Made by a program: the position numbers and the translations under genes. Source: a virus (taxonomy: Duplodnaviria > Heunggongvirae > Uroviricota > Caudoviricetes). From it: a stretch of DNA of 13,546 bases. The stretch lies in the IMG/VR virus record IMGVR_UViG_2565956716_000001; one strand, 5' to 3'. Positions 1 to 13,546 of this stretch are shown in pieces. The notes beneath the pieces were generated by a model. It had not been told where the DNA came from and did not search any database. It saw nothing but the letters and a program-made list of their open reading frames with translations. Each line of letters starts with the position of its first letter. The first letter of the stretch is position 1.

Positions 1-1164
1 TTACGCCTTCTTTATATCCTCCATAATTCCACAGTGGGACATATTTGGGACATTATCACCAAAAATGTCGTCTATTTTCCTTGCATGCTCTGTCAAATGA
101 TTAGGCGCAAGGTGAGCATACCTACGAACCATTTCTATGGACTCCCATCCGCCCATTTCCTGAAGCACAGATAATGGGACGCCTGACTGGATCAGCCAGC
201 TTGCCCAGGTGTGTCTGAGGTCATGGAAACGGAAATCTTCAATTCCTGCACGACGACAAGCTGATAGCCATGATGTCTTGCTGTCGATGCGCATCTTCCT
301 GACCGCAGGCGTTGATGTTCCATCTGCTCGCTTAGCCGCCTTGGTATGTACAAACACCCATTTGTGATGCTTGCCTATTTGATCACGCAACACTTTACAG
401 GCGGTATCGTTCAGCGCCACACCAATGGCGCGGTTTGATTTGCTCTCTTCTGGATTCACCCAGGCAACTCGTCGCTGCATGTCGATTTGTTGCCATTCCA
501 GATTTATGATGTTCGACTTTCTCAGACCAGTTGCCAGCGCAAACTTGACGACAGATTTCAGTGGTTCGGGGCACTCATCAATAAGGCGTTTTGCTTCCTC
601 CTTTTCCAGCCATCTGACGCGCTTGTTTCTGACCGCTGGTATCTTGATGACAGGCGCTTTTTCCAGCCACTTCCAGTCGCGTTCTGCAGCACGGAGAATG
701 GCCTTTATCATGGCAAGATGCTTTGCCTTTGTCTGAGTTGATACTGGCTTTGGTTCATAAACAGGCGGTTCTTTACCTTTCCTGATGGCGGCCTGAACTT
801 TCTGTTTCCATATTTCTTTCGTCTTTCTGTTATGCATTCTGCTTACAGCAGAGTAAATCTTTGCCTCCGAGATATCTTTAAGCCTTATACCCTCAAAATG
901 TTCAAGCCAGAACTCAATCCGGCTTTTATCTGAATCGAGAGATTTTTTATCAGCTTTTTCTTCAAGCCATCTTAGGCAGGCCTCTTCAAAAGTGACATCA
1001 GGTAAATCCCCTAGCTTTTCTACTCGCCAGAGTTCTGCTTTTCGCTTGTCGTGCAACTCCTGAGCTTGCCGCTTGTCCTTTGTGCCAAGAGATTCCTTAA
1101 TTCGTTTCCCGCCCGGGAGCGAATACGAGGCATACCATATTTCATTTCTGCGGAAGAGTGACAT
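1..1164 (-). CDS. intD: Phage tyrosine integrase (P22/DLP12 Int family)
   Basis: 387-aa ORF with C-terminal tyrosine-recombinase motifs (HDLRHTWAS ... VRRYAHL). ATG at 1164 is preceded by a GAGGAAAG Shine-Dalgarno. N-terminus MSLFRR..WYASY..GKR is typical of P22-type integrases. The window starts on its stop codon, so the att site lies outside. Confidence 0.95.
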
Positions 1165-1391
1165 TTTCTTTCCTCTGTTATGCCATCACCCGCGCTCACC
1201 TGGACAGTATGCAGCGGAGACTGAAGCGCCGCAATGCAGGCTTGCCGTGTTGTGAGGTAAGGAGATTTTGGCTTGGTTGGATCTTTACGTGTTGCCTGTA
1301 GGCGGCCTGTTCGTATCCAGTTGGTGGCGGTTGGTCTGGATATCTGAAGAAACTGACAGGCCTCATCGAGTGTGAGGCTGTATGGCTCCAT
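1020..1391 (-). CDS. xisD: Excisionase (HTH DNA-binding, P22 Xis-like)
   Basis: ATG at 1391 with GGTGA RBS, overlapping the upstream stop as TAATG. N-terminal [26 protein letters not shown] is an excisionase-type HTH. The 3' end overlaps the int start by about 145 nt, as in many int-xis pairs. The longer 151-aa frame in the ORF track is probably a 5' over-extension. Confidence 0.65.
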
Positions 1392-1696
1392 TATTTCACC
1401 TCTTGCTGTGTCATTGTTGAAAAATGGATAACAGCTCGTTGCTGCCAGACGATCCAACCGAGAGTCATATCCCATGCCATGTATTCGTTATCGCCGTTTT
1501 TTGCTCTCCGACGATCTACTAAGTCACCGAAACGCTTTTCCATGAATAATTCATAGGCTTCGCGTTCATCTGGCTCTACTTCCAGAGATACGAGTGCGAT
1601 TTCATAAGCACGGCGCTCAATATCGTCTCGAACCTCTAGGCTGCTGATTCGTTCTTTGATTTCTTTAATCAGTTCTTTATTGGTAAATGTGGTCAT
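1391..1696 (-). CDS. Hypothetical acidic phage early protein (ea-like)
   Basis: 101-aa ORF whose ATG overlaps the upstream stop (TAATG) and whose stop overlaps the xis ATG, suggesting translational coupling. Codon usage is coherent; no family recognised. Confidence 0.5.
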   Translation of the reverse strand: MTTFTNKELIKEIKERISSLEVRDDIERRAYEIALVSLEVEPDEREAYELFMEKRFGDLVDRRRAKNGDNEYMAWDMTLGWIVWQQRAVIHFSTMTQQEVK

Positions 1697-1980
1697 TATG
1701 CTCCAGCCTCCGGTGCTTTTGGCATTACTGCCCAGTGAGTGATATTGACGTTTTCAAGGTCCCCGACCTGAAATGTCCACTGCCATTCTCCGGTTTCTTT
1801 TTGTCCCCAGGTGTACCAGAGAGAACGCCAGCCAATCAGCCAGCCTTCTCCATTAGCATCAAATAACAGAACACTTTCATTTGCTGGTGGCAGTTCAGCT
1901 GACACTGGTATTATTTTGTTTTCCAGTGCCCGCACATTTAGCTTCAAGCGCGTCGAATTTACGTACCAGGTACTCAGCAT
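1696..1980 (-). CDS. Hypothetical phage protein with DUF551-like C-terminus
   Basis: 94-aa ORF. The C-terminal W-rich segment ending ..ITHWAVMPKAPE resembles the DUF551 signature (..THWMPLPEPP) common in enterobacterial prophage early regions. Chained to the downstream ORF by stop/start overlap. Confidence 0.5.
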   Translation of the reverse strand: MLSTWYVNSTRLKLNVRALENKIIPVSAELPPANESVLLFDANGEGWLIGWRSLWYTWGQKETGEWQWTFQVGDLENVNITHWAVMPKAPEAGA

Positions 1981-2049
1981 TTGTTTCGTTCACTTTCAGA
2001 TCTCGCGGTACACATTTCCCGCGAAGAAACCCTTCCATTTCGAAAACAT

Positions 2050-2256
2050 TCATGCGCATTTGCGTAACTCCGATAAATCGTTAAAACGTTCCATAAACAT
2101 CCCGTAGGCATGACCCGGTGCCAGTGGAATCACGTTGAACATCTCTGTTGCCGGGATGCCTTCCAGTACAGGCCAGAAAGAGCCATCATCAAGCCCGAGA
2201 TCGCGGCGTTCGGTTGCCAGCATGATGAGATCGGCATATTTCACGGGTGTACTCAT
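2050..2256 (-). CDS. Hypothetical small protein (first gene of leftward int-proximal operon)
   Basis: 68-aa ORF from the ATG at 2256 (the ORF track extends to a TTG at 2274). No strong RBS and no recognised domain. Confidence 0.3.
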   Translation of the reverse strand: MSTPVKYADLIMLATERRDLGLDDGSFWPVLEGIPATEMFNVIPLAPGHAYGMFMERFNDLSELRKCA

Positions 2257-2777
2257 AACTGGGGGTAACCGCAATGCGTCGAATGTTTATCAGCTTAACG
2301 TTGCGAAGCTTCAGGCAGCGGCATTTTCTCAACTGTCAGATTCTGACCCGTCAAAATCTGACGCATCAAAATCTGACCCGTCAAAATTTGATGCGTCGAA
2401 ATCTGGCAAAAAAGCGGGTTTTCACCCGTCAGAATCTGGCGGGGATCCGTCAGTAAAATCAAAACATGATCCGTCAGATAAAAAAACTTCTCGTCCGGAC
2501 GCTTCGCAACCGGACACGCAGACGGCTGAACAGGAGTTTTTAACTCGCCATCCTGATGCGGTTGTATTCAGCCCTAAAAAGCGCCAGTGGGGAACGCAGG
2601 ATGATTTGACCTGCGCACAGTGGCTCTGGAAAAAAATCATCGCCCTGTACGAGCAGGCCGCCGAATGTGACGGCGAGGTGGTTCGTCCCAAAGAACCGAA
2701 CTGGACAGCCTGGGCAAACGAAATTCGCCTGATGTGTGTGAAGAGTGGTATCTGTCAGGGAATTACGTGGGGGCTTA
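2222..2777 (+). pseudogene. Lambda O-like replication initiator remnant (5'-truncated), containing the origin iterons
   Basis: The open frame runs through the iteron array, encoding a low-complexity linker (SDSDPSKSDASKSDPSKFDASKSG...), then about 90 protein-like codons (..AQWLWKKIIALYEQAAECDGEVVRPKEPNWTAWANEIRLMCVKSG..). Where an N-terminal DNA-binding domain should be encoded, the sequence is occupied by minus-strand ORFs. Beyond 2777 the frame turns G/R-rich and overlaps a better gene in another frame. Confidence 0.35.
2336..2410. repeat. Tandem 15-bp direct repeats (five copies, consensus TCAAAATCTGACCCG); putative ori iterons
   Basis: Read directly: tcagattctgacccg / tcaaaatctgacgca / tcaaaatctgacccg / tcaaaatttgatgcg / tcgaaatctggcaaa. 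Degenerate copies (gtcagaatctggcg, gtcagtaaaatc, gtcagataaaaaaac) and A-rich tracts follow to about 2485. Confidence 0.65.
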
Positions 2778-3104
2778 ATGACGACGTTAACTCAATGCCA
2801 GCAGCAGGTGCTGGATATGCTGATTTCTTACCAGAAAGAACGTGGCTTCCCGCCAACCAATCAGGAGGTGGCTACCATGCTGGGATACCGTTCAGTGAAT
2901 GCAGCGGTGGAGCATCTTCGCGCACTGGAGAAAAAAGGCGTCATCACGATAAAGCGTGGCGTGGCCCGGGGCATCACGCTTCATACCGCGGTGAAGGACG
3001 ACGACAGCGAGGTGGCCGGGATTATCCGCGCACTGCTTGCTGGTGAGGAAAACGCCAGGCTGCGTGCAGCCCACTGGTTACATGAGAGGGGGCTGAAAGT
3101 ATGA
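2778..3104 (+). CDS. LexA N-terminal DNA-binding-domain-like protein (winged HTH) lacking the S24 peptidase domain
   Basis: 108 aa from the ATG at 2778 (GGGGG upstream). MTTLTQCQQQVLDMLISYQKERGFPPTNQEVATMLGYRSVNAAVEHLRALEKKGVI aligns along its length with the LexA N-terminus ([56 protein letters not shown]). It ends in a short helical-looking tail and its stop overlaps the rusA ATG (ATGA). Confidence 0.7.
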   Translation: MTTLTQCQQQVLDMLISYQKERGFPPTNQEVATMLGYRSVNAAVEHLRALEKKGVITIKRGVARGITLHTAVKDDDSEVAGIIRALLAGEENARLRAAHWLHERGLKV

Positions 3105-3490
3105 AGCTGATTCTGCCTTTTCCACCCAGCGTGAACACCTACTGGCGACACCCCAACAAAGGGGCATTTGCTGGTAAGAGCCTGATAAGCGCGGCGGGGC
3201 GAAAATTCCAGAGTGCGGCGTGCACAGCAATAGTTGAGCAGTTACGTCGTCTGCCGAAACCAACGTCGGCACCTGCTTCAGTGGAGATCGTGTTGTTTCC
3301 TCCGGATAACCGGATCCGCGATCTGGACAACTATAACAAGGCGCTGTTTGACGCCCTGACCCACGCGGGTGTGTGGGAAGACGACAGTCAGGTGAAAAGA
3401 ATGCTGGTGGAGTGGGGACCGGTTATCCCGGAAGGGAAGGTCGAGATCACTATCAGTAAGTACGAGAAAACGGCGGGTGCAGCCGCCTGA
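3101..3490 (+). CDS. rusA: RusA-family Holliday junction resolvase
   Basis: 129 aa with GAGAGGGGG RBS. The motif RDLDNYNKALFDALTHAGVWEDDSQV matches the RusA catalytic-region signature (RDLDN...FDAL...DD.QV). Confidence 0.85.
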   Translation: MKLILPFPPSVNTYWRHPNKGAFAGKSLISAAGRKFQSAACTAIVEQLRRLPKPTSAPASVEIVLFPPDNRIRDLDNYNKALFDALTHAGVWEDDSQVKRMLVEWGPVIPEGKVEITISKYEKTAGAAA

Positions 3491-3509
3491 TCAAGAGGAG
3501 AAACGAAGT

Positions 3510-4307
3510 ATGAATAATCTGATGGTCATTGATGGTATTGAAGTTCGTCGTGATGCTTATGGGCGTTACAGCCTGAACGATCTGCACAGGGCTGCCGGTT
3601 CTCTGGATAAGCATAAGCCTGCATTCTGGCTCCGCAATGAGCAAACTGAACGTTTAATAAGCGAGTTGCAGATTTGCAACTCGGTCAATATAGAGCCAGT
3701 TAACGTTATTCGTGGCGGAAATAACCAGGGGACGTATGTCTGCAAAGAACTGGTGTATGCCTATGCAATGTGGATCAGCCCGTCATTCCATCTGAAGGTG
3801 ATCCGTACTTTCGATATGGTAACCAGCGCATCGGAAAAATTATCCGGGCAGGCTGCTGACAAGATGCAGGCTGGCGTGATTCTGCTGGACTTTATGCGCC
3901 GGGAGTTAAACCTGTCTAACTCTTCAGTGCTTGGTGCCTGTCAGAAACTCCAGGAGGCTGTTGGCTTACCGAATCTGGCACCGCGCTATGCCATTGATGC
4001 TCCTGCTGACGCGCCTGATGGCTCAAGCCGTCCCACGCTGTCACTGAGTGCACTGCTGAAGCAGTATGGTATCCGCCTGACAGCTAATCAGGCATATCAC
4101 CAGATGGTGAAGCTGGGGATCGTCGAGCAGCGCGAACGATACAGCCGTACCGCGATTAACAACATCAAAAAATTCTGGTCGCTGACAGCGAAAGGCTGCA
4201 TGTTCGGCAAGAACATCACCAGTCCCGCAAATCCGCGCGAGACGCAGCCGCATTTCTTCGAATCCCGATTCCCTGAGCTGTTAAAGCTGCTCGATACCGT
4301 TCATTGA
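3510..4307 (+). CDS. KilA-N domain DNA-binding protein (Roi/antirepressor-like)
   Basis: ATG at 3510 with AGAGGAG RBS. The N-terminal MNNLMVIDGIEVRRDAYGRYSLNDLHRAAG...KPAFWLRNEQT is a typical KilA-N domain; the C-terminal half is unassigned. Confidence 0.8.
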   Translation: MNNLMVIDGIEVRRDAYGRYSLNDLHRAAGSLDKHKPAFWLRNEQTERLISELQICNSVNIEPVNVIRGGNNQGTYVCKELVYAYAMWISPSFHLKVIRTFDMVTSASEKLSGQAADKMQAGVILLDFMRRELNLSNSSVLGACQKLQEAVGLPNLAPRYAIDAPADAPDGSSRPTLSLSALLKQYGIRLTANQAYHQMVKLGIVEQRERYSRTAINNIKKFWSLTAKGCMFGKNITSPANPRETQPHFFESRFPELLKLLDTVH

Positions 4308-4308
4308 G

Positions 4309-5304
4309 GTGACCGTGAGAGCACTACTGACCCCTGAAATTGCCCCGCGTATGGGGATCGTATTGTTCAGGCCCGGTTCAGAGCTGATGCCCCTGTTTAT
4401 GCAGGGGCGTGTACTGCTGGAGCCTGAGCCGGAGCATTATTCATCTTTCGCCAGTGGTGCCGTTCCCGCGGCATCACAACCGCTGGCGGATGATCCTGCC
4501 GTTCGGGCCGTGTTCCGTAATGAGGCAGTGATTCGTCGTGCTGGTGGGGTGGAATGTCTTGAAAGCTGGTTACTTCGTGAAAAAGGCTGCCAGTGGCCTC
4601 ATTCCGACTGGCACAGCGAGAACATGACCACAATGCGACACGCGCCGGGCGCAATCCGTCTGTGCTGGCACTGCGATAATCAGTTACGTGATCAGTTCAC
4701 GGAGCGGCTGGAATCAATGGCAACGGATAACTGTGCCCGTTGGGTGTTGTCTGTAGTCCGTCGGGATCTCGATTTTAATGATAACCATGCCGTGACAATG
4801 CCGGAACTGTGCTGGTGGCTGGTTCGTAATGACCTGGCGGATGCCTTACCGGAAAGCGCAGCCCGTAAGGCACTGAGATTACCGAAGTCTGTTTTGCCGT
4901 CTGTCACTCGGGAAAGTGACCTTGTGCCTTCGGTTCCTGCCACCAGCATTATCCAGGATAAAGCGAAAAAGGTGCTGGCGCTGAAAGTGGATCCGGAGTC
5001 GCCGGAGTCTTTTATGTTACGCCCCAAACGTCGTCGCTGGGTTAATGAACAGTACACGCGCTGGGTTAAGACGCAGCCGTGTGCATGTTGTGGAAAGCCA
5101 GCTGATGATCCGCATCATCTGATAGGCCATGGTCAGGGTGGAATGGGTACAAAAGCGCATGACCTTTTTGTGCTGCCTTTGTGCAGAAAACACCACGACG
5201 AACTGCATGCGGATACCGTGGCATTTGAAGAGAAGTATAGCTCCCAGCTGGAGCTGATATTTCGTTTTATCGATCGCGCACTGGCGATTGGTGTGCTGGC
5301 CTGA
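4309..5304 (+). CDS. DUF968-family protein with C-terminal HNH-like motif
   Basis: 331-aa ORF. The C-terminus [31 protein letters not shown] is the cysteine/histidine motif of DUF968 proteins found next to Q in lambdoid prophages. Start is uncertain: GTG at 4309 sits 1 nt after the upstream stop, with internal ATG alternatives. Confidence 0.7.
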
Positions 5305-5321
5305 TTTTGTGGAGAAAGTTA

Positions 5322-5705
5322 ATGCGTGATATTCAGATGGTTCTTGAACGTTGGGGAGCGTGGGCGGCTAATAATCATGAAGATGTGACCTGGTCGTCCA
5401 TTGCCGCCGGTTTTAAGGGATTAATTCCTTCAAAAGTAAAATCTCGCCCGCAATGTTGTGACGATGACGCGATGATCATTTGCGGGTGCATGGCCCGTCT
5501 GAAAAAGAACAACAGCGATTTGCACGATTTATTAGTAGATTATTATGTAGTCGGTATGACATTCATGTCACTGGCAGGTAAGCATTGCTGCTCTGATGGT
5601 TATATCGGGAAAAGGTTACAGAAGGCTGAGGGCATAATTGAAGGGATGTTAATGGCATTAGATATCCGGTTAGAGATGGATATCGTTGTTAATAACTCTA
5701 ATTAA
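5322..5705 (+). CDS. quuD: Late-gene antiterminator Q (DLP12 QuuD-type)
   Basis: 127 aa from the ATG at 5322 (GGAGAAAG RBS); the ORF track begins 5 codons earlier at a [21 protein letters not shown]... with a Cys-rich zinc-binding region ([12 protein letters not shown] ... HCC) fits the small Q antiterminator family. Confidence 0.85.
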
Positions 5706-5728
5706 TATGCCAATTGTTTACTGAAAGT

Positions 5729-5756
5729 TATTAAAAATGGGGCGTTGCAACGCCCC
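5729..5756 (-). terminator. Intrinsic terminator for minus-strand (porin) transcripts
   Basis: Perfect palindrome GGGGCGTTGCAACGCCCC at 5739-5756, followed on the minus strand by ATTTTTAAT. On the plus strand it is followed by CAAAAATAAA, so it works in one direction only. Confidence 0.55.
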
Positions 5757-5844
5757 CAAAAATAAAGGGTAATATATAACAGAAGGTTTATATAGTTAGA
5801 AGCAAGGTTGTGCTCCTAAAGGAAGTGGCTTGAGGGAGCCACTT

Positions 5845-5885
5845 ATATGTTGGGGAGGCAACGCCTCCCGCAACATATCTTTTTC
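5845..5885 (+). terminator. Intrinsic terminator on plus strand downstream of Q (candidate tR'-like)
   Basis: Long hairpin ATATGTTG-GGGAGGC-AAC-GCCTCCC-G-CAACATAT at 5845-5878, followed by CTTTTT at 5879-5884. It lies about 140 nt after the Q stop, matching the lambda arrangement in which a short PR' transcript ends at tR' unless Q-modified. Confidence 0.5.
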
Positions 5886-5894
5886 GTAATCAGA

Positions 5895-6992
5895 TTAGAA
5901 CTGGTAAACCAGACCTACAGCAACGATGTCATCAGTGCTTACACCGAGTGCTTTAGTGAAGTCATTTTTGTCAAGCAGGTTGATTTTGTAATCAACGAAA
6001 GTAGACATATTTTTGTTGAAGTAATAGGTTGCACCTACATCAACATATTTGACTAAGTCCTGATCGCCCCATACTCCAAGATCCTTACCTTTAGATTGCA
6101 GGTAAGCAACGGACGGACGCAGACCGAAATCGAACTGATATTGTGCAACAGCTTCGAAGTTTTGAGCTTTATTAGCAACGAAGTGATCAGCAAATACAGT
6201 CATATTCTGGGTTTCAGAATAGGTAGTGGCCAGGTAAATGTTGTTAGCGTCATATTTCAGACCTGCGGCCCAAACTTCTGCATTTTTACCGGAAGCAAAT
6301 ACTTCAGGAAGAACTTTCCCTGCATTAACTTGAGTGTCGGTACGATCAGATTTCGCATAAGTTGCACCGATACCGAATCCTTCGTATTCATAGGTAGCAG
6401 AGAAACCGAAGCCATCACCGTTACCTTCGGTGTAGTTATCGAAATCGCTACGATCGTTTTTGCCTTGGTACTGAGCAGCAAAGTTCAGACCATCAACCAG
6501 ACCAAAGAAGTCGTTGTTACGATAGGTTGCAACACCAGTGGTGCGACCAGTCATGAACACATCTGTTTGGGTCCAGGTATCGCCACCGAATTCTGGCAGA
6601 ACGTCAGTCCACGCACCGATGTCGTATGCTACACCGTAGTTACGGCCGTAATCGATTGAGCCGTAGTCACCGAATTTCAGGCCTGCAAATGCAAGACGGG
6701 TTTTGTCTTTGGAGGAACCTTGAGATTCAGCGCGGTTGCCTTTGAATTCATATTCCCACTGACCGAAACCAGTCAGCTGATCGTTGATTTGGGTTTCGCC
6801 TTTGAAGCCCAGACGAACATAAGTAGTATCACCATCATCTGCATCGTTAGAGGAAAAGTAGTGCTTGGCATTAACTTTCCCGTACAGATCCAGCTTGTTA
6901 CTGTCTTTATTATAAATTTCAGCTGCCTGAGCAGACATCGCCATCAGTACTGATGCAGCTACAGCAGAAATTGCCACTGTTAATTTTTTCAT
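5895..6992 (-). CDS. nmpC: Outer-membrane general porin NmpC (OmpC/OmpD/Lc family), intact
   Basis: 365 aa with signal peptide [27 protein letters not shown] and a C-terminal ..VAVGLVYQF beta-barrel motif ending in Phe. ATG at 6992. Uninterrupted ORF in this window. Confidence 0.95.
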
Positions 6993-7470
6993 CGTGAGCC
7001 CTTTTTTTTGAACTATTATTAAAAAATGATGTCACTGCGCGATAAATATTCATCTAATCAATGTGATTATTTCAAGATGTAAGTTTTAGTTTCTCATTTA
7101 ATTTGTGAAGTAGATCTCTATTTTTATCTGAACTTTTTCTATCGAAACCTATTTATGGCTCTTATTTGAACAAAAATAAATCTATTAGCTAATTTATATT
7201 AATGGCTGTTATTTATGGTGGTTCTATAATTTGTCTGTTTAATTTAAACCAGCTAAAAATAACGCTGGAAATTATTTATTGGTTATTTGTTGAAGTTTTC
7301 TTATGTATTTGTGGTGGTGTTTTGAACACTCGGTAGCATTCTCATAAATATCATTCAGTGGTTTACGTACGTAAAAAATTGGTTATGCTGTTAAGAGTGG
7401 TTACTTCGTCACACAGCTTAAACCCGCCGTCGAGCTGGTTTTTCCATTTTTTGAGTCTCGATATTAGCTG
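6993..7470. promoter_or_regulatory. AT-rich regulatory region upstream of nmpC (porin promoter, likely nucleoid-protein bound)
   Basis: About 480 bp of strongly AT-rich non-coding sequence between the divergent porin and lysis genes, with no ORF of 60 aa or more. No promoter elements could be assigned with confidence. Confidence 0.3.
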
Positions 7471-7528
7471 ATAACTCAATACCTGAGTTATTCACTGACT
7501 CGGAGTCAGTTACGTTTCTGCTTTTTTG
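7471..7528 (+). terminator. Tandem hairpins plus T-tract upstream of the holin gene (possible terminator or operator)
   Basis: ATAACTCA-ATACC-TGAGTTAT (7471-7491) and ACTGACT-CGG-AGTCAGT (7494-7510), then CTTTTTTG at 7521-7528. The T-run lies about 11 nt from the second stem, so terminator function is uncertain. Confidence 0.3.
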
Positions 7529-7580
7529 CGATACGTTGTATTCCCTCAATTTACACCCGCTTTGTCTGCGAGGTGGGGTT

Positions 7581-7796
7581 ATGAAATTCATGGATAAGTT
7601 AACAACTGGAGTCGCCTATGGCACCTCAGCAGGTAGTGCCGGTTACTGGTTTTTACAGCTGCTCGATAAAGTCACTCCCTCACAGTGGGCAGCAATAGGT
7701 GTGCTGGGTAGCCTGGTATTTGGCCTGCTGACGTACCTGACAAACCTTTATTTCAAGATTAAAGAAGATAAGCGCAAGGCTGCGAGAGGTGAATAA
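7581..7796 (+). CDS. essD: Class II holin (phage 21 S / pinholin type) with dual-start motif
   Basis: 71 aa from the ATG at 7581 (GAGGTGGGG RBS), with a second in-frame ATG at 7590 (M-K-F-M), the dual-start arrangement of S21 holin/antiholin. Two transmembrane segments and a charged C-terminus ([13 protein letters not shown]). Stop overlaps the next ATG as TAATG. Confidence 0.9.
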
Positions 7797-8293
7797 TGCC
7801 TCCATCATTACGAAAAGCCGTTGCTGCTGCTATTGGTGGCGGAGCAATTGCTATAGCATCAGTGTTAATCACTGGCCCAAGTGGTAACGATGGTCTGGAA
7901 GGTGTCAGCTACATACCATACAAAGATATTGTTGGTGTATGGACTGTATGTCACGGACACACCGGAAAAGACATCATGCTCGGTAAAACGTATACCAAAG
8001 CAGAATGCAAAGCACTCTTGAATAAAGACCTTGCCACTGTCGCCAGACAAATTAACCCGTATATCAAAGTCGATATACCGGAAACAACGCGCGGCGCTCT
8101 TTACTCATTCGTTTACAACGTGGGTGCTGGCAATTTTAGAACATCGACGCTTCTTCGCAAAATAAACCAGGGCGATATCAAAGGCGCATGTGATCAGCTG
8201 CGTCGCTGGACATACGCTGGCGGTAAGCAATGGAAAGGCCTGATGACTCGTCGTGAGATTGAGCGTGAAGTCTGTTTGTGGGGGCAACAGTGA
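7796..8293 (+). CDS. rrrD: SAR endolysin (T4-lysozyme-like muramidase, phage 21 R type)
   Basis: 165 aa. The Gly/Ala-rich N-terminal segment [20 protein letters not shown] is a signal-anchor-release domain. Catalytic Glu35-Asp44-Thr50 are in the expected spacing ([18 protein letters not shown]). Confidence 0.92.
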
Positions 8294-8751
8294 GCAGAGT
8301 AACCGCGATTATATCCGCTCTGATTATCTGCATCATCGTCAGCCTGTCATGGGCGGTCAATCATTACCGTGATAACGCAATCGCCTACAAAGCCCAGCGC
8401 GACAAAAATGCCAGAGAACTGAAGCTAGCGAACGCGGCAATTACTGACATGCAGATGCGTCAGCGTGATGTTGCTGCGCTCGATGCAAAATACACGAAGG
8501 AGTTAGCTGATGCGAAAGCTGAAAATGATGCTCTGCGTGATGATGTTGCCGCTGGTCGTCGTCGGTTGCACATCAAAGCAGTCTGTCAGTCAGTGCGTGA
8601 AGCCACCACGGCCTCCGGCGTGGATAATGCAGCCTCCCCCCGACTGGCAGACACCGCTGAACGGGATTATTTCACCCTCAGAGAGAGGCTGATCACTATG
8701 CAAAAACAACTGGAAGGAACCCAGAAGTATATTAATGAGCAGTGCAGATAG
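8290..8751 (+). CDS. rzpD: i-spanin Rz
   Basis: 153 aa from the GTG at 8290, which overlaps the endolysin stop (GTGA); an alternative GTG lies at 8278. N-terminal transmembrane helix followed by a coiled-coil-like periplasmic domain. Confidence 0.85.
8510..8692 (+). CDS. rzoD: o-spanin Rz1 lipoprotein, embedded in the +1 frame of Rz
   Basis: 60 aa with AAGGAG RBS at 8497-8502 and ATG at 8510. Lipobox LVVVGC and a proline-rich mature part ([15 protein letters not shown]), wholly nested inside the Rz gene. Confidence 0.8.
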
Positions 8752-8782
8752 AGCTGACCATATCGATGGGCAACTCATGCAA

Positions 8783-9076
8783 TTATTTTGAGCAATACAC
8801 ACGCGCTTCCAGCGGAGTATAAATGCCTAAAGTAATAAAACCGAGCAATCCATTTACGAATGTTTGCTGGGTTTCTGTTTTAACAACATTTTCTGCGCCG
8901 CCACAAATTTTAGCTGCATCGACAGTTTTCTTCTGCCCAATTCCAGAAACGAAGAAATGATGGGTGATGGTTTCCTTTGGTGCTACTGCTGTCTGTTTGT
9001 TTTGAACAGTAAATGTCTGTTGAGCACATCCTGTAATAAGCAGGGCCAGCGCAGTAGCGAGTAGCATTTTTTTCAT
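8783..9076 (-). CDS. borD: Bor lipoprotein (serum-resistance / outer-membrane lipoprotein)
   Basis: 97 aa with lipoprotein signal MKKMLLATALALLITGC. Matches the lambda Bor family along its whole length as recalled. Confidence 0.9.
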   Translation of the reverse strand: MKKMLLATALALLITGCAQQTFTVQNKQTAVAPKETITHHFFVSGIGQKKTVDAAKICGGAENVVKTETQQTFVNGLLGFITLGIYTPLEARVYCSK

Positions 9077-9366
9077 GGTGTTATTCCCGATGCTTTTTGA
9101 AGTTCGCAGAATCGTATGTGTAGAAAATTAAACAAACCCTAAACAATGAGTTGAAATTTCATATTGTTAATATTTATTAATGTATGCCAGGTGCGATGAA
9201 TCGTCATTGTATTCCCGGATTAACTATGTCCACAGCCCTGACGGGGAACTTCTCTGCGGGAGTGTCCGGGAATAATTAAAAACGATGCACACAGGGTTTA
9301 GCGCGTACATGTATTGTATTATGCCAACGCCCCGGTGCTGACACGGAAGAAACCGGACGTTATGAT

Positions 9367-9777
9367 TTAGCGTGGAAAGATTTGTGTAGTGTTCTGAATG
9401 CTCTCAGTAAATAGTAATGAATTATCAAAGGTATAGTAATATCTTTTATGTTCGTGGATATTTGTAACCCATCGGAAAACTCCTGCTTTAGCAAGATTTT
9501 CCCTGTATTGCTGAAATGTGATTTCTCTTGATTTCAACCTATCATAGGACGTTTCTATAAGATGCGTATTTCTTGAGAATTTAACATTTACAACCTTTTT
9601 AAGTCCTTTTATTAACACGGTGTTATCGTTTTCTAACACAATGTGAATATTATCTGTGGCTAGATAGTAAATATAATGTGAGACATTGTGACGTTTTAGT
9701 TCAGAATAAAACAATTCACAGTTTAAATCTTTTCGCACTTGATCGAATATTTCTTTAAAAATGGCAACCTGAGCCAT
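9367..9777 (-). CDS. ybcV: YbcV-like (DUF1398-type) protein
   Basis: 136 aa from the ATG at 9777 (GGAAGG about 9 nt upstream); the ORF track extends to 9900 (177 aa). AT-rich gene in the position occupied by the DUF1398 'envelope protein' ORF of lambda and DLP12. Family assignment is from position and recalled features. Confidence 0.55.
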
Positions 9778-10062
9778 TGGTAAAACCTTCCATGTGATAC
9801 GAGGGCGCGTAGTTTGCATTATCGTTTTTATCGCTTCAATCTGGTCTGACCTCTTTGTGTTTTGTTGATGATTTATGTCAAATATTAGGAATGTTTTCAA
9901 TTAATAGTATTGGTTGCGTAACAAAGTGCGGTCCTGCTGGCATTCTGGAGGGAAATACAACCGACAGATGTATGTAAGGCCAACGTGCTCAAACCTTCAT
10001 ACAGAAAGATTTGAAGTAATATTTTAACCGCTAGATGAAGAGCAAGCGCATGGAGCGACAAA

Positions 10063-10269
10063 ATGAATAAAGAACAATCTGCTGATGATCCCTCCGTGGA
10101 TCTGATTCGTGTAAAAAATATGCTTAATAGCACCATTTCTATGAGTTACCCTGATGTTGTAATTGCATGTATAGAACATAAGGTGTCTCTGGAAGCATTC
10201 AGGGCAATTGAGGCAGCGTTGGTGAAGCACGATAATAATATGAAGGATTATTCCCTGGTGGTTGACTGA
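10063..10269 (+). CDS. ybcW: YbcW-like small protein
   Basis: 68-aa ORF ([22 protein letters not shown]...) divergent from the ybcV-like gene, in the position of DLP12 ybcW and lambda p79. Confidence 0.6.
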
Positions 10270-10433
10270 TCACCATAACTGCTAATCATTCAAACTACTT
10301 AACCTGTGACAGAGCCAACACGCAGTCTGTCACTGTCAGGAAAGTGGTAAAACTGCAACTCAATTACTGCAATGCCCTCGTAATTAAGTGAATTTACAAT
10401 ATCGTCCTGTTCGGAGGGAAGAACGCGGGATGT

Positions 10434-10628
10434 TCATTCTTCATCACTTTTAATTGATGTATATGCTCTCTTTTCTGACGTTAGCCTCCGACGGCAGGCT
10501 TCAATGACCCAGGCTGAGAAATTCCCGGACCCTTTTTGCTCAAGAGCGATGTTAATTTGTTCAATCATTTGGTTAGGAAAGCGGATGTTGCGGGTTGTTG
10601 TTCTGCGGGTTCTGTTCTTAGTTGACAT
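10434..10628 (-). CDS. ylcI: Small ribbon-helix-helix (Arc/CopG-like, DUF3950) DNA-binding protein
   Basis: 64 aa. Basic N-terminus (RTRRTTTRNIRF) followed by a predicted strand-helix-helix (PNQMIEQINIALEQKG..FSAWVIEACRRRL). GGGG RBS upstream of the ATG at 10628. Confidence 0.6.
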   Translation of the reverse strand: MSTKNRTRRTTTRNIRFPNQMIEQINIALEQKGSGNFSAWVIEACRRRLTSEKRAYTSIKSDEE

Positions 10629-10779
10629 GAGGTTGCCCCGTATTCAGTGTCGCTGATTTGTATTGTCTGAAGTTGTTTTTACGTTAAGTTGATGCAGATC
10701 AATTAATACGATACCTGCGTCATAATTGATTATTTGACGTGGTTTGATGGCGTAGATGCACGTTGTGACATGTAGATGA

Positions 10780-11016
10780 TAATTATTATCATTTTGCGGG
10801 TCCTTTCCGGCGATCCGACAGGTTACGGGGCGGCGACCTCGCGGGTTTTCGCTATTTATGAAAATTTTCCGGTTTAAGGCGTTTCCGTTCTTCTTCGTCA
10901 TAACTTAATGTTTTTATTTAAAATACCCTCTGAAAAGAAAGGAAACGACAGGTGCTGAAAACGGGCTTTTTGGCCACTGTCGTTTCCTTTCTCTGTTTTT
11001 GTCCGTGGAATGAACA
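10780..11016. other. Lambda-type cos site: cosQ, cosN (12-nt cohesive end GGGCGGCGACCT at 10828-10839), cosB
   Basis: The string ..gatccgacaggttacg|gggcggcgacct|cgcgggttttcgctatttatgaaaattttccggtttaaggcgtttccgttcttcttcg.. matches the joined right and left ends of phage lambda as recalled. The Nu1 start lies about 190 nt from cosN, as in lambda. Confidence 0.8.
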
Positions 11017-11562
11017 ATGGAAGTCAACAAAAAGCAGCTGGCTGAAATTTTCGGCGCGAGTATCCGTACCATTCAGAACTGGCAGGAGCAGGGAATGCCC
11101 GTTCTGCGAGGCGGTGGGAAGGGTAATGAGGTGCTTTATGACTCTGCCGCCGTCATAAAATGGTATGCCGAAAGGGATGCTGAAATTGAGAACGAAAAGC
11201 TGCGCCGGGAGGTTGAAGAACTGCGACAGGCCAGCGAGACAGATCTCCAGCCAGGGACTATTGAGTACGAACGCCATCGACTTACGCGTGCGCAGGCCGA
11301 CGCACAGGAGCTGAAAAATGCCAGAGACTCCGCTGAAGTGGTGGAAACCGCATTCTGTACTTTCGTGCTGTCGCGGATCGCAGGTGAAATTGCCAGTATT
11401 CTCGACGGGATCCCCCTGTCGGTGCAGCGGCGTTTTCCGGAACTGGAAAACCGACATGTTGATTTCCTGAAACGGGATATCATCAAAGCCATGAACAAAG
11501 CAGCCGCGCTGGATGAACTGATACCGGGGTTGCTGAGTGAATATATCGAACAGTCAGGTTAA
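11017..11562 (+). CDS. nohD: Terminase small subunit Nu1
   Basis: 181 aa, [36 protein letters not shown]..., collinear with lambda Nu1 over its full length. N-terminal winged HTH and P-loop-like GGGKG. Confidence 0.95.
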
Positions 11563-13546
11563 CAGGCTGCGACATTTTGTCCGCGCCGGGCTTCGCTCAC
11601 TGTTCAGGCCGGAGCCACAGACTGCCGTTGAATGGGCGGATGCTAATTACTATCTCCCGAAAGAATCCGCATACCAGGAAGGGCGCTGGGAAACACTGCC
11701 CTTTCAGCGGGCCATCATGAATGCGATGGGCAGCGACTATATCCGTGAGGTGAATGTAGTGAAGTCTGCCCGTGTCGGTTATTCCAAAATGCTGCTGGGT
11801 GTTTATGCCTACTTTATAGAGCATAAGCAACGCAACACACTTATCTGGTTGCCGACGGATGGTGATGCCGAGAACTTTATGAAAACCCACGTTGAGCCGA
11901 CCATCCGCGATATTCCGTCGCTGCTGGCGCTGGCTCCGTGGTATGGCAAAAAGCACCGGGATAACACGCTCACCATGAAGCGTTTCACCAATGGTCGTGG
12001 CTTCTGGTGCCTGGGCGGTAAAGCGGCAAAAAACTACCGTGAAAAGTCGGTGGATGTGGCGGGTTATGATGAACTTGCTGCCTTTGATGATGATATTGAA
12101 CAGGAAGGCTCTCCGACGTTCCTGGGTGACAAGCGTATTGAAGGCTCGGTCTGGCCAAAGTCCATCCGTGGCTCCACGCCCAAAGTGAGAGGCACCTGTC
12201 AGATTGAGCGTGCAGCCAGTGAATCCCCGCATTTTATGCGTTTTCATGTTGCCTGCCCGCACTGCGGGGAGGAGCAGTACCTTAAATTCGGCGATAAAGA
12301 GACGCCGTTTGGCTTCAAATGGACGCCGGATGATCCCTCCAGCGTGTTTTATCTCTGCGAACATAATGCCTGCGTCATCCGCCAGCAGGAGCTGGACTTC
12401 ACTGATGCCCGTTATATCTGCGAAAAGACCGGGATCTGGACCCGTGATGGCATTCTCTGGTTTTCGTCATCCGGTGAAGAGATTGAGCCACCGGACAGCG
12501 TGACCTTTCACATCTGGACGGCGTACAGCCCGTTCACCACCTGGGTGCAGATTGTCAAAGACTGGATGAAGACGAAAGGGGATACGGGAAAACGTAAAAC
12601 CTTCGTGAACACCACGCTCGGTGAGACATGGGAAGCGAAAATCGGTGAACGTCCGGATGCTGAAGTGATGGCAGAGCGGAAAGAGCATTATTCAGCGCCC
12701 GTTCCTGACCGTGTGGCTTACCTGACTGCCGGTATCGACTCCCAGCTGGACCGCTACGAAATGCGCGTATGGGGATGGGGGCCGGGTGAGGAAAGCTGGC
12801 TGATTGACCGGCAGATTATTATGGGCCGCCACGACGATGAACAGACGCTGCTGCGTGTGGATGAGGCCATCAATAAAACCTATACCCGCCGGAATGGTGC
12901 AGAAATGTCGATATCCCGTATCTGCTGGGATATTGGCGGGATTGACCCGACCATTGTGTATGAACGCTCGAAAAAACATGGGCTGTTCCGGGTGATCCCC
13001 ATTAAAGGGGCATCCGTCTACGGAAAGCCGGTGGCCAGCATGCCACGTAAGCGAAACAAAAACGGGGTTTACCTTACCGAAATCGGCACGGATATTGCAC
13101 CACCAGATATTCCTGCTGGCTTTGTGGCTGTTTTCAACAGTGATGAGGCATCGTGGCATCTCGTTGAAGATCATCGGGGTAAAACGGTTTATGACGTGGC
13201 TTCCGGCGACGCGTTATTTATTTCTGAACTCGGCTCATTACCGGAAAATGTCACCTGGTTATCCCCGGAAGGGGAGTTTCAGAAGTGGAACGGCACAGCT
13301 TGGGTGAAGGATACGGAAGCAGAAAAACTGTTCCGGATCCGTGAGGCGGAAGAAACAAAAAACAGCCTGATGCAGGTAGCCAGTGAGCATATAGCGCCGC
13401 TTCAGGATGCTGTGGATCTGGAGATCGCAACGGAGGAAGAAACCTTGTTGCTGGAAGCCTGGAAAAAGTATCGGGTGTTGCTGAACCGTGTTGATACATC
13501 AACTGCACCTGATATTGAGTGGCCTACGAACCCTGTCAGGGAGTAA
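11537..13546 (+). CDS. Terminase large subunit gpA (N-terminal ~519 aa) fused in frame to the C-terminal ~150 aa of tail-fibre assembly protein Tfa; deletion remnant
   Basis: GTG start at 11537 overlapping the Nu1 3' end. Residues 1-519 follow lambda gpA ([14 protein letters not shown]...[10 protein letters not shown]...). After ..LTEIGTD (codon 519 at 13091-13093) the sequence continues [35 protein letters not shown]...[13 protein letters not shown], which is the Tfa C-terminal region. The window ends on its stop codon. Confidence 0.88.

Follow-up and report, generated by a model that had tools for sequence, protein, structure and literature searches.

The 13,546-bp stretch of phage DNA analyzed here (IMG/VR record IMGVR_UViG_2565956716_000001, referred to as the window) holds a defective DLP12-type prophage, in which six palindromic iterons lie inside a truncated gene for a lambda O-like replication initiator. 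With a probability of about 0.8, these repeats represent the cis-acting origin core of a lambdoid replication module of the SfIV/SfII/CPS-53 type, which has been orphaned and is most likely inert in its present place. We demonstrate the anatomy of the array, the homology of the gene that surrounds it and its conservation at the DNA level. An origin anatomy of six palindromic iterons and GATC repeats without a loader gene is thereby documented for a very common yet unstudied prophage module of Escherichia coli and Shigella.

Iteron array and initiator pseudogene

The array and the gene fragment that contains it consist of the following elements (window coordinates):

2335-2440: palindrome array of six 13-bp copies of the unit GTCARAWTYTGAC, each with 2 spacer bases
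2335-2407: iterons 1 to 5 (GTCARAWTYTGAC), abutting at 15-bp spacing, with starts at 2335, 2350, 2365, 2380 and 2395
2408-2427: spacer between iterons 5 and 6, with an A6 tract and a T4 tract (AAAAAAGCGGGTTTTCACCC), kept in all four lineages compared
2428-2440: sixth iteron (GTCAGAATCTGGC), starting 33 bp past the fifth and closest to the A-rich region
2444-2495: A-rich segment, strand-asymmetric, with two GATC-bearing 15-mers; candidate unwinding region
2263-2740, plus strand: pseudogene fragment of an O-like replication initiator, residues 78 to 237 of a 313-amino-acid protein, both ends lost
2135-3046, plus strand: chimeric open reading frame (ORF), not a gene, composed of antisense yfdR, the initiator fragment and an out-of-frame read of a LexA-like gene

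Tandem 15-bp repeats had been reported at this place in an earlier note on the same DNA and were recovered by two programs. Tandem Repeats Finder described positions 2342-2405 with a period of 15 (4.3 copies, 81% matches) and, in a second reading of the same array, with a period of 30 (2.1 copies, 88% matches, score 100). A repeat search yielded start-to-start spacings of 15, 15, 15, 15 and 33 nucleotides (nt) in the same register; each unit is better taken as a 13-bp palindrome. Allowing up to two mismatches, GTCARAWTYTGAC occurs six times in the 13,546 bp, always inside 2335-2440, with 1.24 occurrences expected, and six palindromes were attained in 0 of 200 shuffles of the window. No Rfam family matched in the array region.

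The repeats lie inside an open frame, as the earlier note had stated, and are in phase with ORF 2135-3046, where they are read as SDSDP/SKSDA/SKSDP/SKFDA/SKSG. The encoded linker of 70 amino acids is of low complexity and rich in Ser, Pro, Asp and Lys; its description as acidic was overstated, as 13 Asp and Glu residues face 11 Lys and Arg residues and the linker is nearly neutral. The A-rich tract seen in the earlier reading is real but modest: segment 2444-2495 has a GC content of 0.37 (A 0.40, T 0.23), compared to 0.48 for the whole window, and an AT skew of +0.27 to +0.33. The repeat search placed the GATC-bearing 15-mers at 2444-2458 (GATCCGTCAGTAAAA) and 2468-2482 (GATCCGTCAGATAAA). The segment may act as the unwinding region.

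Array size was analyzed in 80 IMG/VR loci that were found by N-terminal alignment, are ~99% identical and were used solely for this purpose. Six sites, the number present in the window, is the modal size (73/80 loci). These 99%-identical genes (loci L008-L087, at about nt 2800-2900 of each) have between 5 and 8 iterons, and many ORFs in the databases are frameshift variants in which the array is read in an alternative frame (LNCQILTRQNLTHQNL...). On the minus strand, the spacer between iterons 5 and 6 contains a hairpin at 2415-2428 that resembles a terminator (CGGGTGAAAACCCG and then a T run). Its stem is not kept in the phages Kp4878-1 or phiP27, and it is probably incidental.

The fragment at 2263-2740 is 100% identical to gp41 of SfIV (reference locus L001, 3001-3478) and 99.2% identical to the intact gene of RM10809-3 (reference locus L003, 7940-8417). 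SfIV is an isolated, inducible phage whose orf41-45 were assigned to a replication module by its authors (PMC3851460). The Prokaryotic Genome Annotation Pipeline (PGAP) lists the gene as an incomplete pseudogene in the near-identical strain E. coli MSHS 472. In searches against PHROG, the full-length relative matched family 391 ("replication initiation O-like") with an E value of 5.5e-135 and the window fragment with 6.3e-57 (profile positions 78-225). BLASTP aligned the full-length relative with lambda O at 3e-26 (31% identity over 216 amino acids) and the window fragment at 5e-11; tblastn detected the C-terminal domain of phi80 gene 15 at 6e-18 and lambda-type O genes at 1e-18. The proposal of a truncated O-like gene, and with it the similarity of the flanking frame to known initiators, was thus supported. 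An NCBIfam search returned no meaningful match.

The intact gene (L003 7710-8651) encodes 313 amino acids with a winged-helix HTH_36 domain at residues 23-70 (Pfam, 4e-11), followed by the repeat-encoded linker at residues 101-151 and a C-terminal domain homologous to that of lambda O. The six palindromes correspond to codons 101-136. Placement of the repeats at codons 101-151 of 313 parallels that of the lambda iterons at codons 117-145 of 299, in agreement with the lambdoid arrangement suggested before. The window fragment lacks codons 1-77 and 238-313, and the entire N-terminal DNA-binding domain is therefore deleted. The absence of this domain had been stated correctly; the missing domain is HTH_36 and not the PF04492 (Phage_rep_O) of lambda O. 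While lambda O scored 123 bits on PF04492, the full-length relative gave no match to it even at E values up to 0.1 and matched HTH_36 instead.

Conservation of the array across lineages

Each unit of the array is a palindrome, which fits binding by a dimeric helix-turn-helix protein. The architecture of packed sites, A6-7/T4 spacer, last site and GATCC repeats is common to the Klebsiella phage Kp4878-1 (72% protein identity), Phi06_2987 and phiP27 (44% over the N-terminal half). A comparison of 22 sites drawn from the four lineages showed that positions 2-4, 6 and 8-11 are each the same in 19 to 22 of them. These positions include two four-fold-degenerate third positions of Ser codons, with A at position 4 and T at position 10 in 21/22 sites each, whereas outside the linker the Ser codons of the same genes are TCA in 10/85 and TCT in 9/85 cases. 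The N-terminal coding DNA of the four lineages is 64-76% identical.

The best-conserved part comprises the site nearest to the A-rich segment together with the GATCC repeats. TCAGAATCTGG within the sixth iteron is invariant in the four lineages, and so is GATCC. In phiP27, the sixth site is read in another codon phase owing to compensating one-base indels, which changes the peptide (LQNLDP versus PSESGG) and leaves the DNA, TCAGAATCTGG, as it is. Taken at the level of sequence, these patterns show that conservation reflects selection on the DNA rather than on the peptide. The strong conservation next to the A-rich segment also fits the in vitro requirements of lambda, for which only the iterons beside the A/T-rich region are reportedly needed (PMC7466680).

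The N-terminal domain and the array travel together with three types of C-terminal domain: lambda-O-like, Phg_2220_C and the phiP27 type, the last of which is followed by DnaC-like and DnaB genes. Module boundaries map to gene nt 412-455, on the right flank of the A-rich segment. In HTH_36 initiators that are more distantly related, palindromic repeats of another sequence occupy the position of the array: GGGGCAGGAGCTGCCC in both Salmonella SI5 and Stx2a_F451, CCTAGTGACAAAATGTCACCA in Vibrio D62 and repeats of the GTGCA type in mEp460. Hybrid initiators of lambda, phi80 and 82 established that the N terminus sets origin specificity and the C terminus partner specificity. As in these modular lambdoid initiators, the N-terminal domain and its iterons appear to move as one module here, as judged by comparing sequences. 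In the proteins P0148, P0156 and P0157, the same lambda-O-like C-terminal domain follows a linker of another sequence (..TENTTEITTENK..), suggesting a further N-terminal/iteron module whose boundary is at SRPDASQPD, just to the right of the origin.

Proposed origin function, alternatives and present state of the array

By analogy with lambda O and oriLambda, the six 13-bp palindromes of the intact phage would be occupied by dimers of the HTH_36 N-terminal domain. The resulting nucleoprotein complex would then distort the adjoining A-rich, GATC-bearing segment, and the lambda-O-like C-terminal domain would finally recruit the host replication machinery. Initiator binding and origin activity of the array are inferred from this parallel. 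Like oriLambda and the origins of Stx phages, the array lies in the middle of the initiator gene, within the segment for an interdomain linker. As in oriLambda, several direct repeats that each have internal dyad symmetry come first, and an A-rich, strand-asymmetric stretch, weaker here than in lambda, comes after them (PMC4488673, PMC7466680). Homology of the C-terminal domain is to residues ~160-270 of lambda O (31-36% identity). Iteron number varies among relatives in the lambda and Stx systems as well, and Stx-phage origins with six iterons exist.

Several points weigh against an origin of this kind. The A-rich segment, at 63% A+T, is weaker than that of lambda and differs from it by two conserved GATC sites. 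The sites measure 13 bp at 15-bp spacing, compared to 18-19 bp at 20-24 bp in lambda, and this spacing sets adjacent sites on different faces of the helix. A description of an SfIV-type phage origin was not found in the literature. Finally, no P gene comes next: in intact relatives (L003 7710-9854; L001 2771-4529), the order is O-like gene, PerC/YfdN, LexA-like gene and RusA, and no P, DnaC or DnaB-like gene is recognizable in these intervals.

The earlier note had pointed to a missing P or helicase-loader gene. Its absence downstream is real but does not indicate truncation, as intact relatives lack one too. None of the module proteins matched a loader PHROG, and YfdN, DUF4222 and the LexA-like protein bear no similarity to a loader. 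YfdN was considered as a hidden P analogue and rejected; it is not similar to lambda P (E value, 0.21), and its PHROG matches are transcriptional activators. The C-terminal domain of lambda O is the part that binds P. Because the intact module has no recognizable helicase loader, the steps downstream of binding may differ from those of lambda.

We weighed three other explanations for the repeats. They might do no more than encode a low-complexity linker of the SKSDP type, lengthened by slippage, and have no role in cis. The repeats do keep to the frame, each period equalling five codons exactly, and copy number ranges from 5 to 8 among close relatives, as in any tandem repeat. A coding role, however, does not account for units that are palindromic throughout, for synonymous third positions that are nearly invariant in genes of 64-76% identity, or for the sixth site of phiP27, which is kept out of frame. 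Nor does it explain why the palindromes at this location are different ones in distant relatives and why the repeats go with the DNA-binding domain rather than with the C-terminal domain. This explanation is largely refuted and has very little probability left. About equally improbable is that the palindromes serve mainly as operators through which the winged-helix protein controls transcription, by autoregulation or read-through. HTH_36, GntR and MarR-like folds are typical of repressors and palindromic sites suit dimeric regulators, but the sites lie in mid-gene and not at a promoter. Moreover, the C-terminal domain is lambda-O-like, relatives of the protein are followed by DnaC and DnaB genes, and the matching PHROG families are replication initiators.

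A slightly better, though still low, chance is given to co-option of the orphan array, either as a decoy that titrates an incoming SfIV-type initiator or as an origin fired in trans that over-replicates the chromosomal region. The array has not decayed and is identical to that of a functional phage, and the cognate initiator is common, with an intact gene in 1,580/5,426 complete E. coli genomes (~29%). As in ectopic-origin interference, initiator-binding repeats located apart from the initiator could compete in trans, and ectopic lambda origins are known to block lambda growth (PMC4488673, PMC3349717). Yet the lambda decoys were on plasmids at 20-40 copies per cell (PMC4488673), and in one study the effect depended on oop transcription too (PMC3349717); here, one chromosomal copy is present. 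Because the published decoys are multicopy or oop dependent, titration or trans-firing by a single chromosomal copy is unlikely. Furthermore, there is no promoter-like site nearby for transcriptional activation of the origin, and the two deletion junctions that flank the fragment occur in 3/5,426 and 0/5,426 genomes, giving no sign of spread or selective retention. MSHS 472 does not contain a second copy of the initiator gene. Related interference is known from lactococcal Per and from plasmid iteron incompatibility.

The favored reading remains an orphaned origin core of the SfIV type. Codons 1-77 of the initiator gene were lost together with the immunity region and the early rightward promoter region in a deletion of 5,170 bp between two GGGTAACC octamers, and a second one of 687 bp took the last 76 initiator codons and yfdN. 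The array itself is complete, shows no decay and matches that of the functional phage SfIV exactly. A sigma-70-like promoter was not detected in window positions 1900-3200. Lacking both initiator and promoter, the array is unable to fire in cis. Most likely, it persists as an inert fossil at argU, within a defective prophage of the DLP12 type, and could be bound only if a co-resident or infecting phage supplies the cognate initiator.

Such an origin relic is of an ordinary kind, and similar relics are already annotated in E. coli K-12. The gene yfdO/oweS of CPS-53 (KpLE1) is catalogued among pseudogenes as "replication protein O family" (PMC6761216). It belongs to the same family, and from nt 234 onward it shares 97% identity with the intact gene. 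The same six-site array directly precedes the annotated yfdO coding sequence (locus L092, 7413-7518; six sites attained in 0/200 shuffles). The truncation lies within 3 nt of that in the window (gene nt 234 versus 231). The two relics differ in attachment site (argW versus argU in the window), in the left deletion partner, which in K-12 lies upstream of yfdP with 2-bp microhomology, and in that K-12 kept the C-terminal end and yfdN. Relics of the yfdO/oweS type, including that of K-12, thus still carry a complete iteron array. K-12 also holds complementary halves of the gene: codons 1-78 are fused to terminase in e14 ymfN (locus L093, 2406-2564), and codon 79 onward with all six iterons is found in CPS-53 yfdO. 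The two breakpoints agree within a nucleotide, and the flanks show non-reciprocal products.

Prophage deletions and the breakpoint in the initiator gene

The prophage is located at a tRNA-Arg gene (argU) with intD. The gene order is intD, yfdT, yfdR remnant, initiator fragment, LexA_DNA_bind protein, RusA, KilA-N, DUF968 and quuD, followed by a porin, lysis genes, bor, nohD and terminase. The neighbors of the initiator fragment and the two deletion junctions are as follows:

2050-2268, minus strand: C-terminal remnant of yfdR (5'-deoxynucleotidase), abutting the junction; annotated by PGAP at 3550-3768 of L002, the MSHS 472 locus
2263-2270: left deletion junction, an 8-bp GGGTAACC common to yfdR and the O-like gene; 5,170 bp lost
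2738-2740: right deletion junction with GTG microhomology; 687 bp lost
2778-3104, plus strand: LexA_DNA_bind-only protein, the next intact gene of the module (Pfam PF01726, 2.9e-19; PHROG 362)

The left junction was mapped against the intact RM10809-3 locus (window 1-2270 = L003 501-2769; window 2263-2740 = L003 7940-8417). The 5,170 bp lost include most of yfdR, yfdQ, yfdP, cI-like and cro-like genes, ymfL and DUF4222, as well as the first 230 nt of the initiator gene (codons 1-77) and the promoter region. Apart from the 687-bp deletion and a single base, the window is identical to MSHS 472 (right-hand segment, 99.99%), against which the right junction was placed (window 1-2740 = L002 1501-4240; window 2738-13546 = L002 4925-15733). 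This deletion took initiator residues 238-313 and almost all of yfdN (PerC family). Of the junctions searched for in 5,426 complete E. coli genomes, the left one (yfdR::O') was present in three and the right one, as a contiguous sequence, in none.

The left breakpoint of the window at gene nt 231 falls into a hot spot at GGGTAACC, codons 78-80 (window 2263-2270; L003 7938-7950), ~70 bp to the left of the iterons. Several N-terminal fragments of the gene from other sources break off at or near this position:

K-12 e14 (ymfN): ends at gene nt 234, joined to terminase
EC581: ends at gene nt 235, joined to a tail fibre assembly gene
E2: ends at gene nt 237-240, joined to a tail fibre gene
P276M: ends at gene nt 229, joined to a KilA-N gene

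A search of the whole gene for breakpoints gave one outlier at nt 183. Figures from a protein search with residues 1-105 refer to the 120 of 229 matches listed and under-sample breaks before residue 78. Among these matches, at least about 70 clusters have an initiator that stops at residues 78-80, representing at least 55 distinct junction-and-partner combinations, and about a dozen clusters break at residues 81-105. The partners comprise RusA, DUF968, lysozyme, terminase, capsid, sheath, tail fibre, methyltransferase, PerC and the LexA-like gene, as well as the initiator's own C terminus and many non-coding frames. On seven contigs, the junctions were confirmed at the DNA level. A protein search with the linker and C-terminal part for leftward deletions returned mostly partial genes at contig ends.

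For 28 junctions, the intact partner site was placed in reading-frame register with the hot spot, using PhiR29_1 (intact DLP12 type) and vB_EcoM-689R6 (intact e14 type) as references. Partners matched the hot spot as follows:

nt 231, G: 15/28 partners
nt 232, G: 20/28 partners
nt 233, G: 8/28 partners
nt 234, T: 24/28 partners
nt 235, A: 26/28 partners
nt 236, A: 9/28 partners
nt 237, C: 17/28 partners
nt 238, C: 15/28 partners

By chance, about 7/28 partners would match, and the other 46 positions gave 2 to 14. The partner consensus is GGNTANCC, a palindrome in which the crossover falls on the central TA and the two N positions match at chance level. All but one of the 28 partners lie downstream on the same strand, at +497 to +32,246 nt, and the events are therefore simple deletions.

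Truncation of the window gene may tentatively be viewed as one instance of a sequence-directed recombination or cleavage that repeatedly splits the initiator gene at GGGTAACC, an interpretation to which we assign somewhat less than even odds. A symmetric consensus with free N positions fits a two-fold-symmetric protein better than annealing at contiguous microhomology. Speculative candidates for the agent include site-specific recombinases or nucleases that act on quasi-sites, and junction resolvases such as the RusA of the module. RusA cleaves 5' of CC at a crossover (PMC1636454), and in GGNTAN^CC the CC occupies the same position on both strands. The second deletion of the window, with its GTG junction, falls outside the consensus rule. 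If the proposal is true, recurrent separation of initiator and origin would explain the repeated disarming of this prophage family, and GGNTANCC would constitute a new recombination or cleavage specificity.

The octamer alone does not make a fragile site. Records are intact across the same GGGTAACC in 4,117/4,118 cases for gene J and in 2,959/2,969 for yfdR, and across GGATAACC in rusA in 2,266/2,306. The hot spot in the initiator gene is intact in 1,585/2,002 records, with many of the partial copies being K-12 laboratory derivatives. As the same octamer is not hot elsewhere, a context close to the origin would be needed. The DNA fold at the hot spot (z = -0.30) led to the rejection of a hairpin as a cause. 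The window deletion joins two GGTAACC sites exactly, and four GGTNACC sites exist in 19,958 bp. Restriction at GGTNACC (BstEII type) was nevertheless dismissed, given that GGTAACC in KilA-N is intact in 2,092/2,095 records and the partner consensus is GGNTANCC rather than GGTNACC. The same applies to Dcm/Vsr activity at the overlapping CCAGG, with 40 CCWGG sites in the locus and three in the gene. GGNTANCC occurs 20 times in PhiR29_1 (L105, 46,273 bp), compared to 7.3 ± 2.3 expected from dinucleotide shuffles, of which 0/100 attained 20; codon usage may explain this excess.

The right end of the prophage has decayed as well. The match to the intact relative ends at window position 13094 (13094-13546 unmatched), and in MSHS 472 (L002 13904-16818) a split terminase gene is followed by tail-fibre-assembly remnants, with head and tail genes deleted. 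The sole Rfam match of the window, IS009 (RF02111; 13305-13503, plus strand, 221.6 bits), lies within the terminase region.

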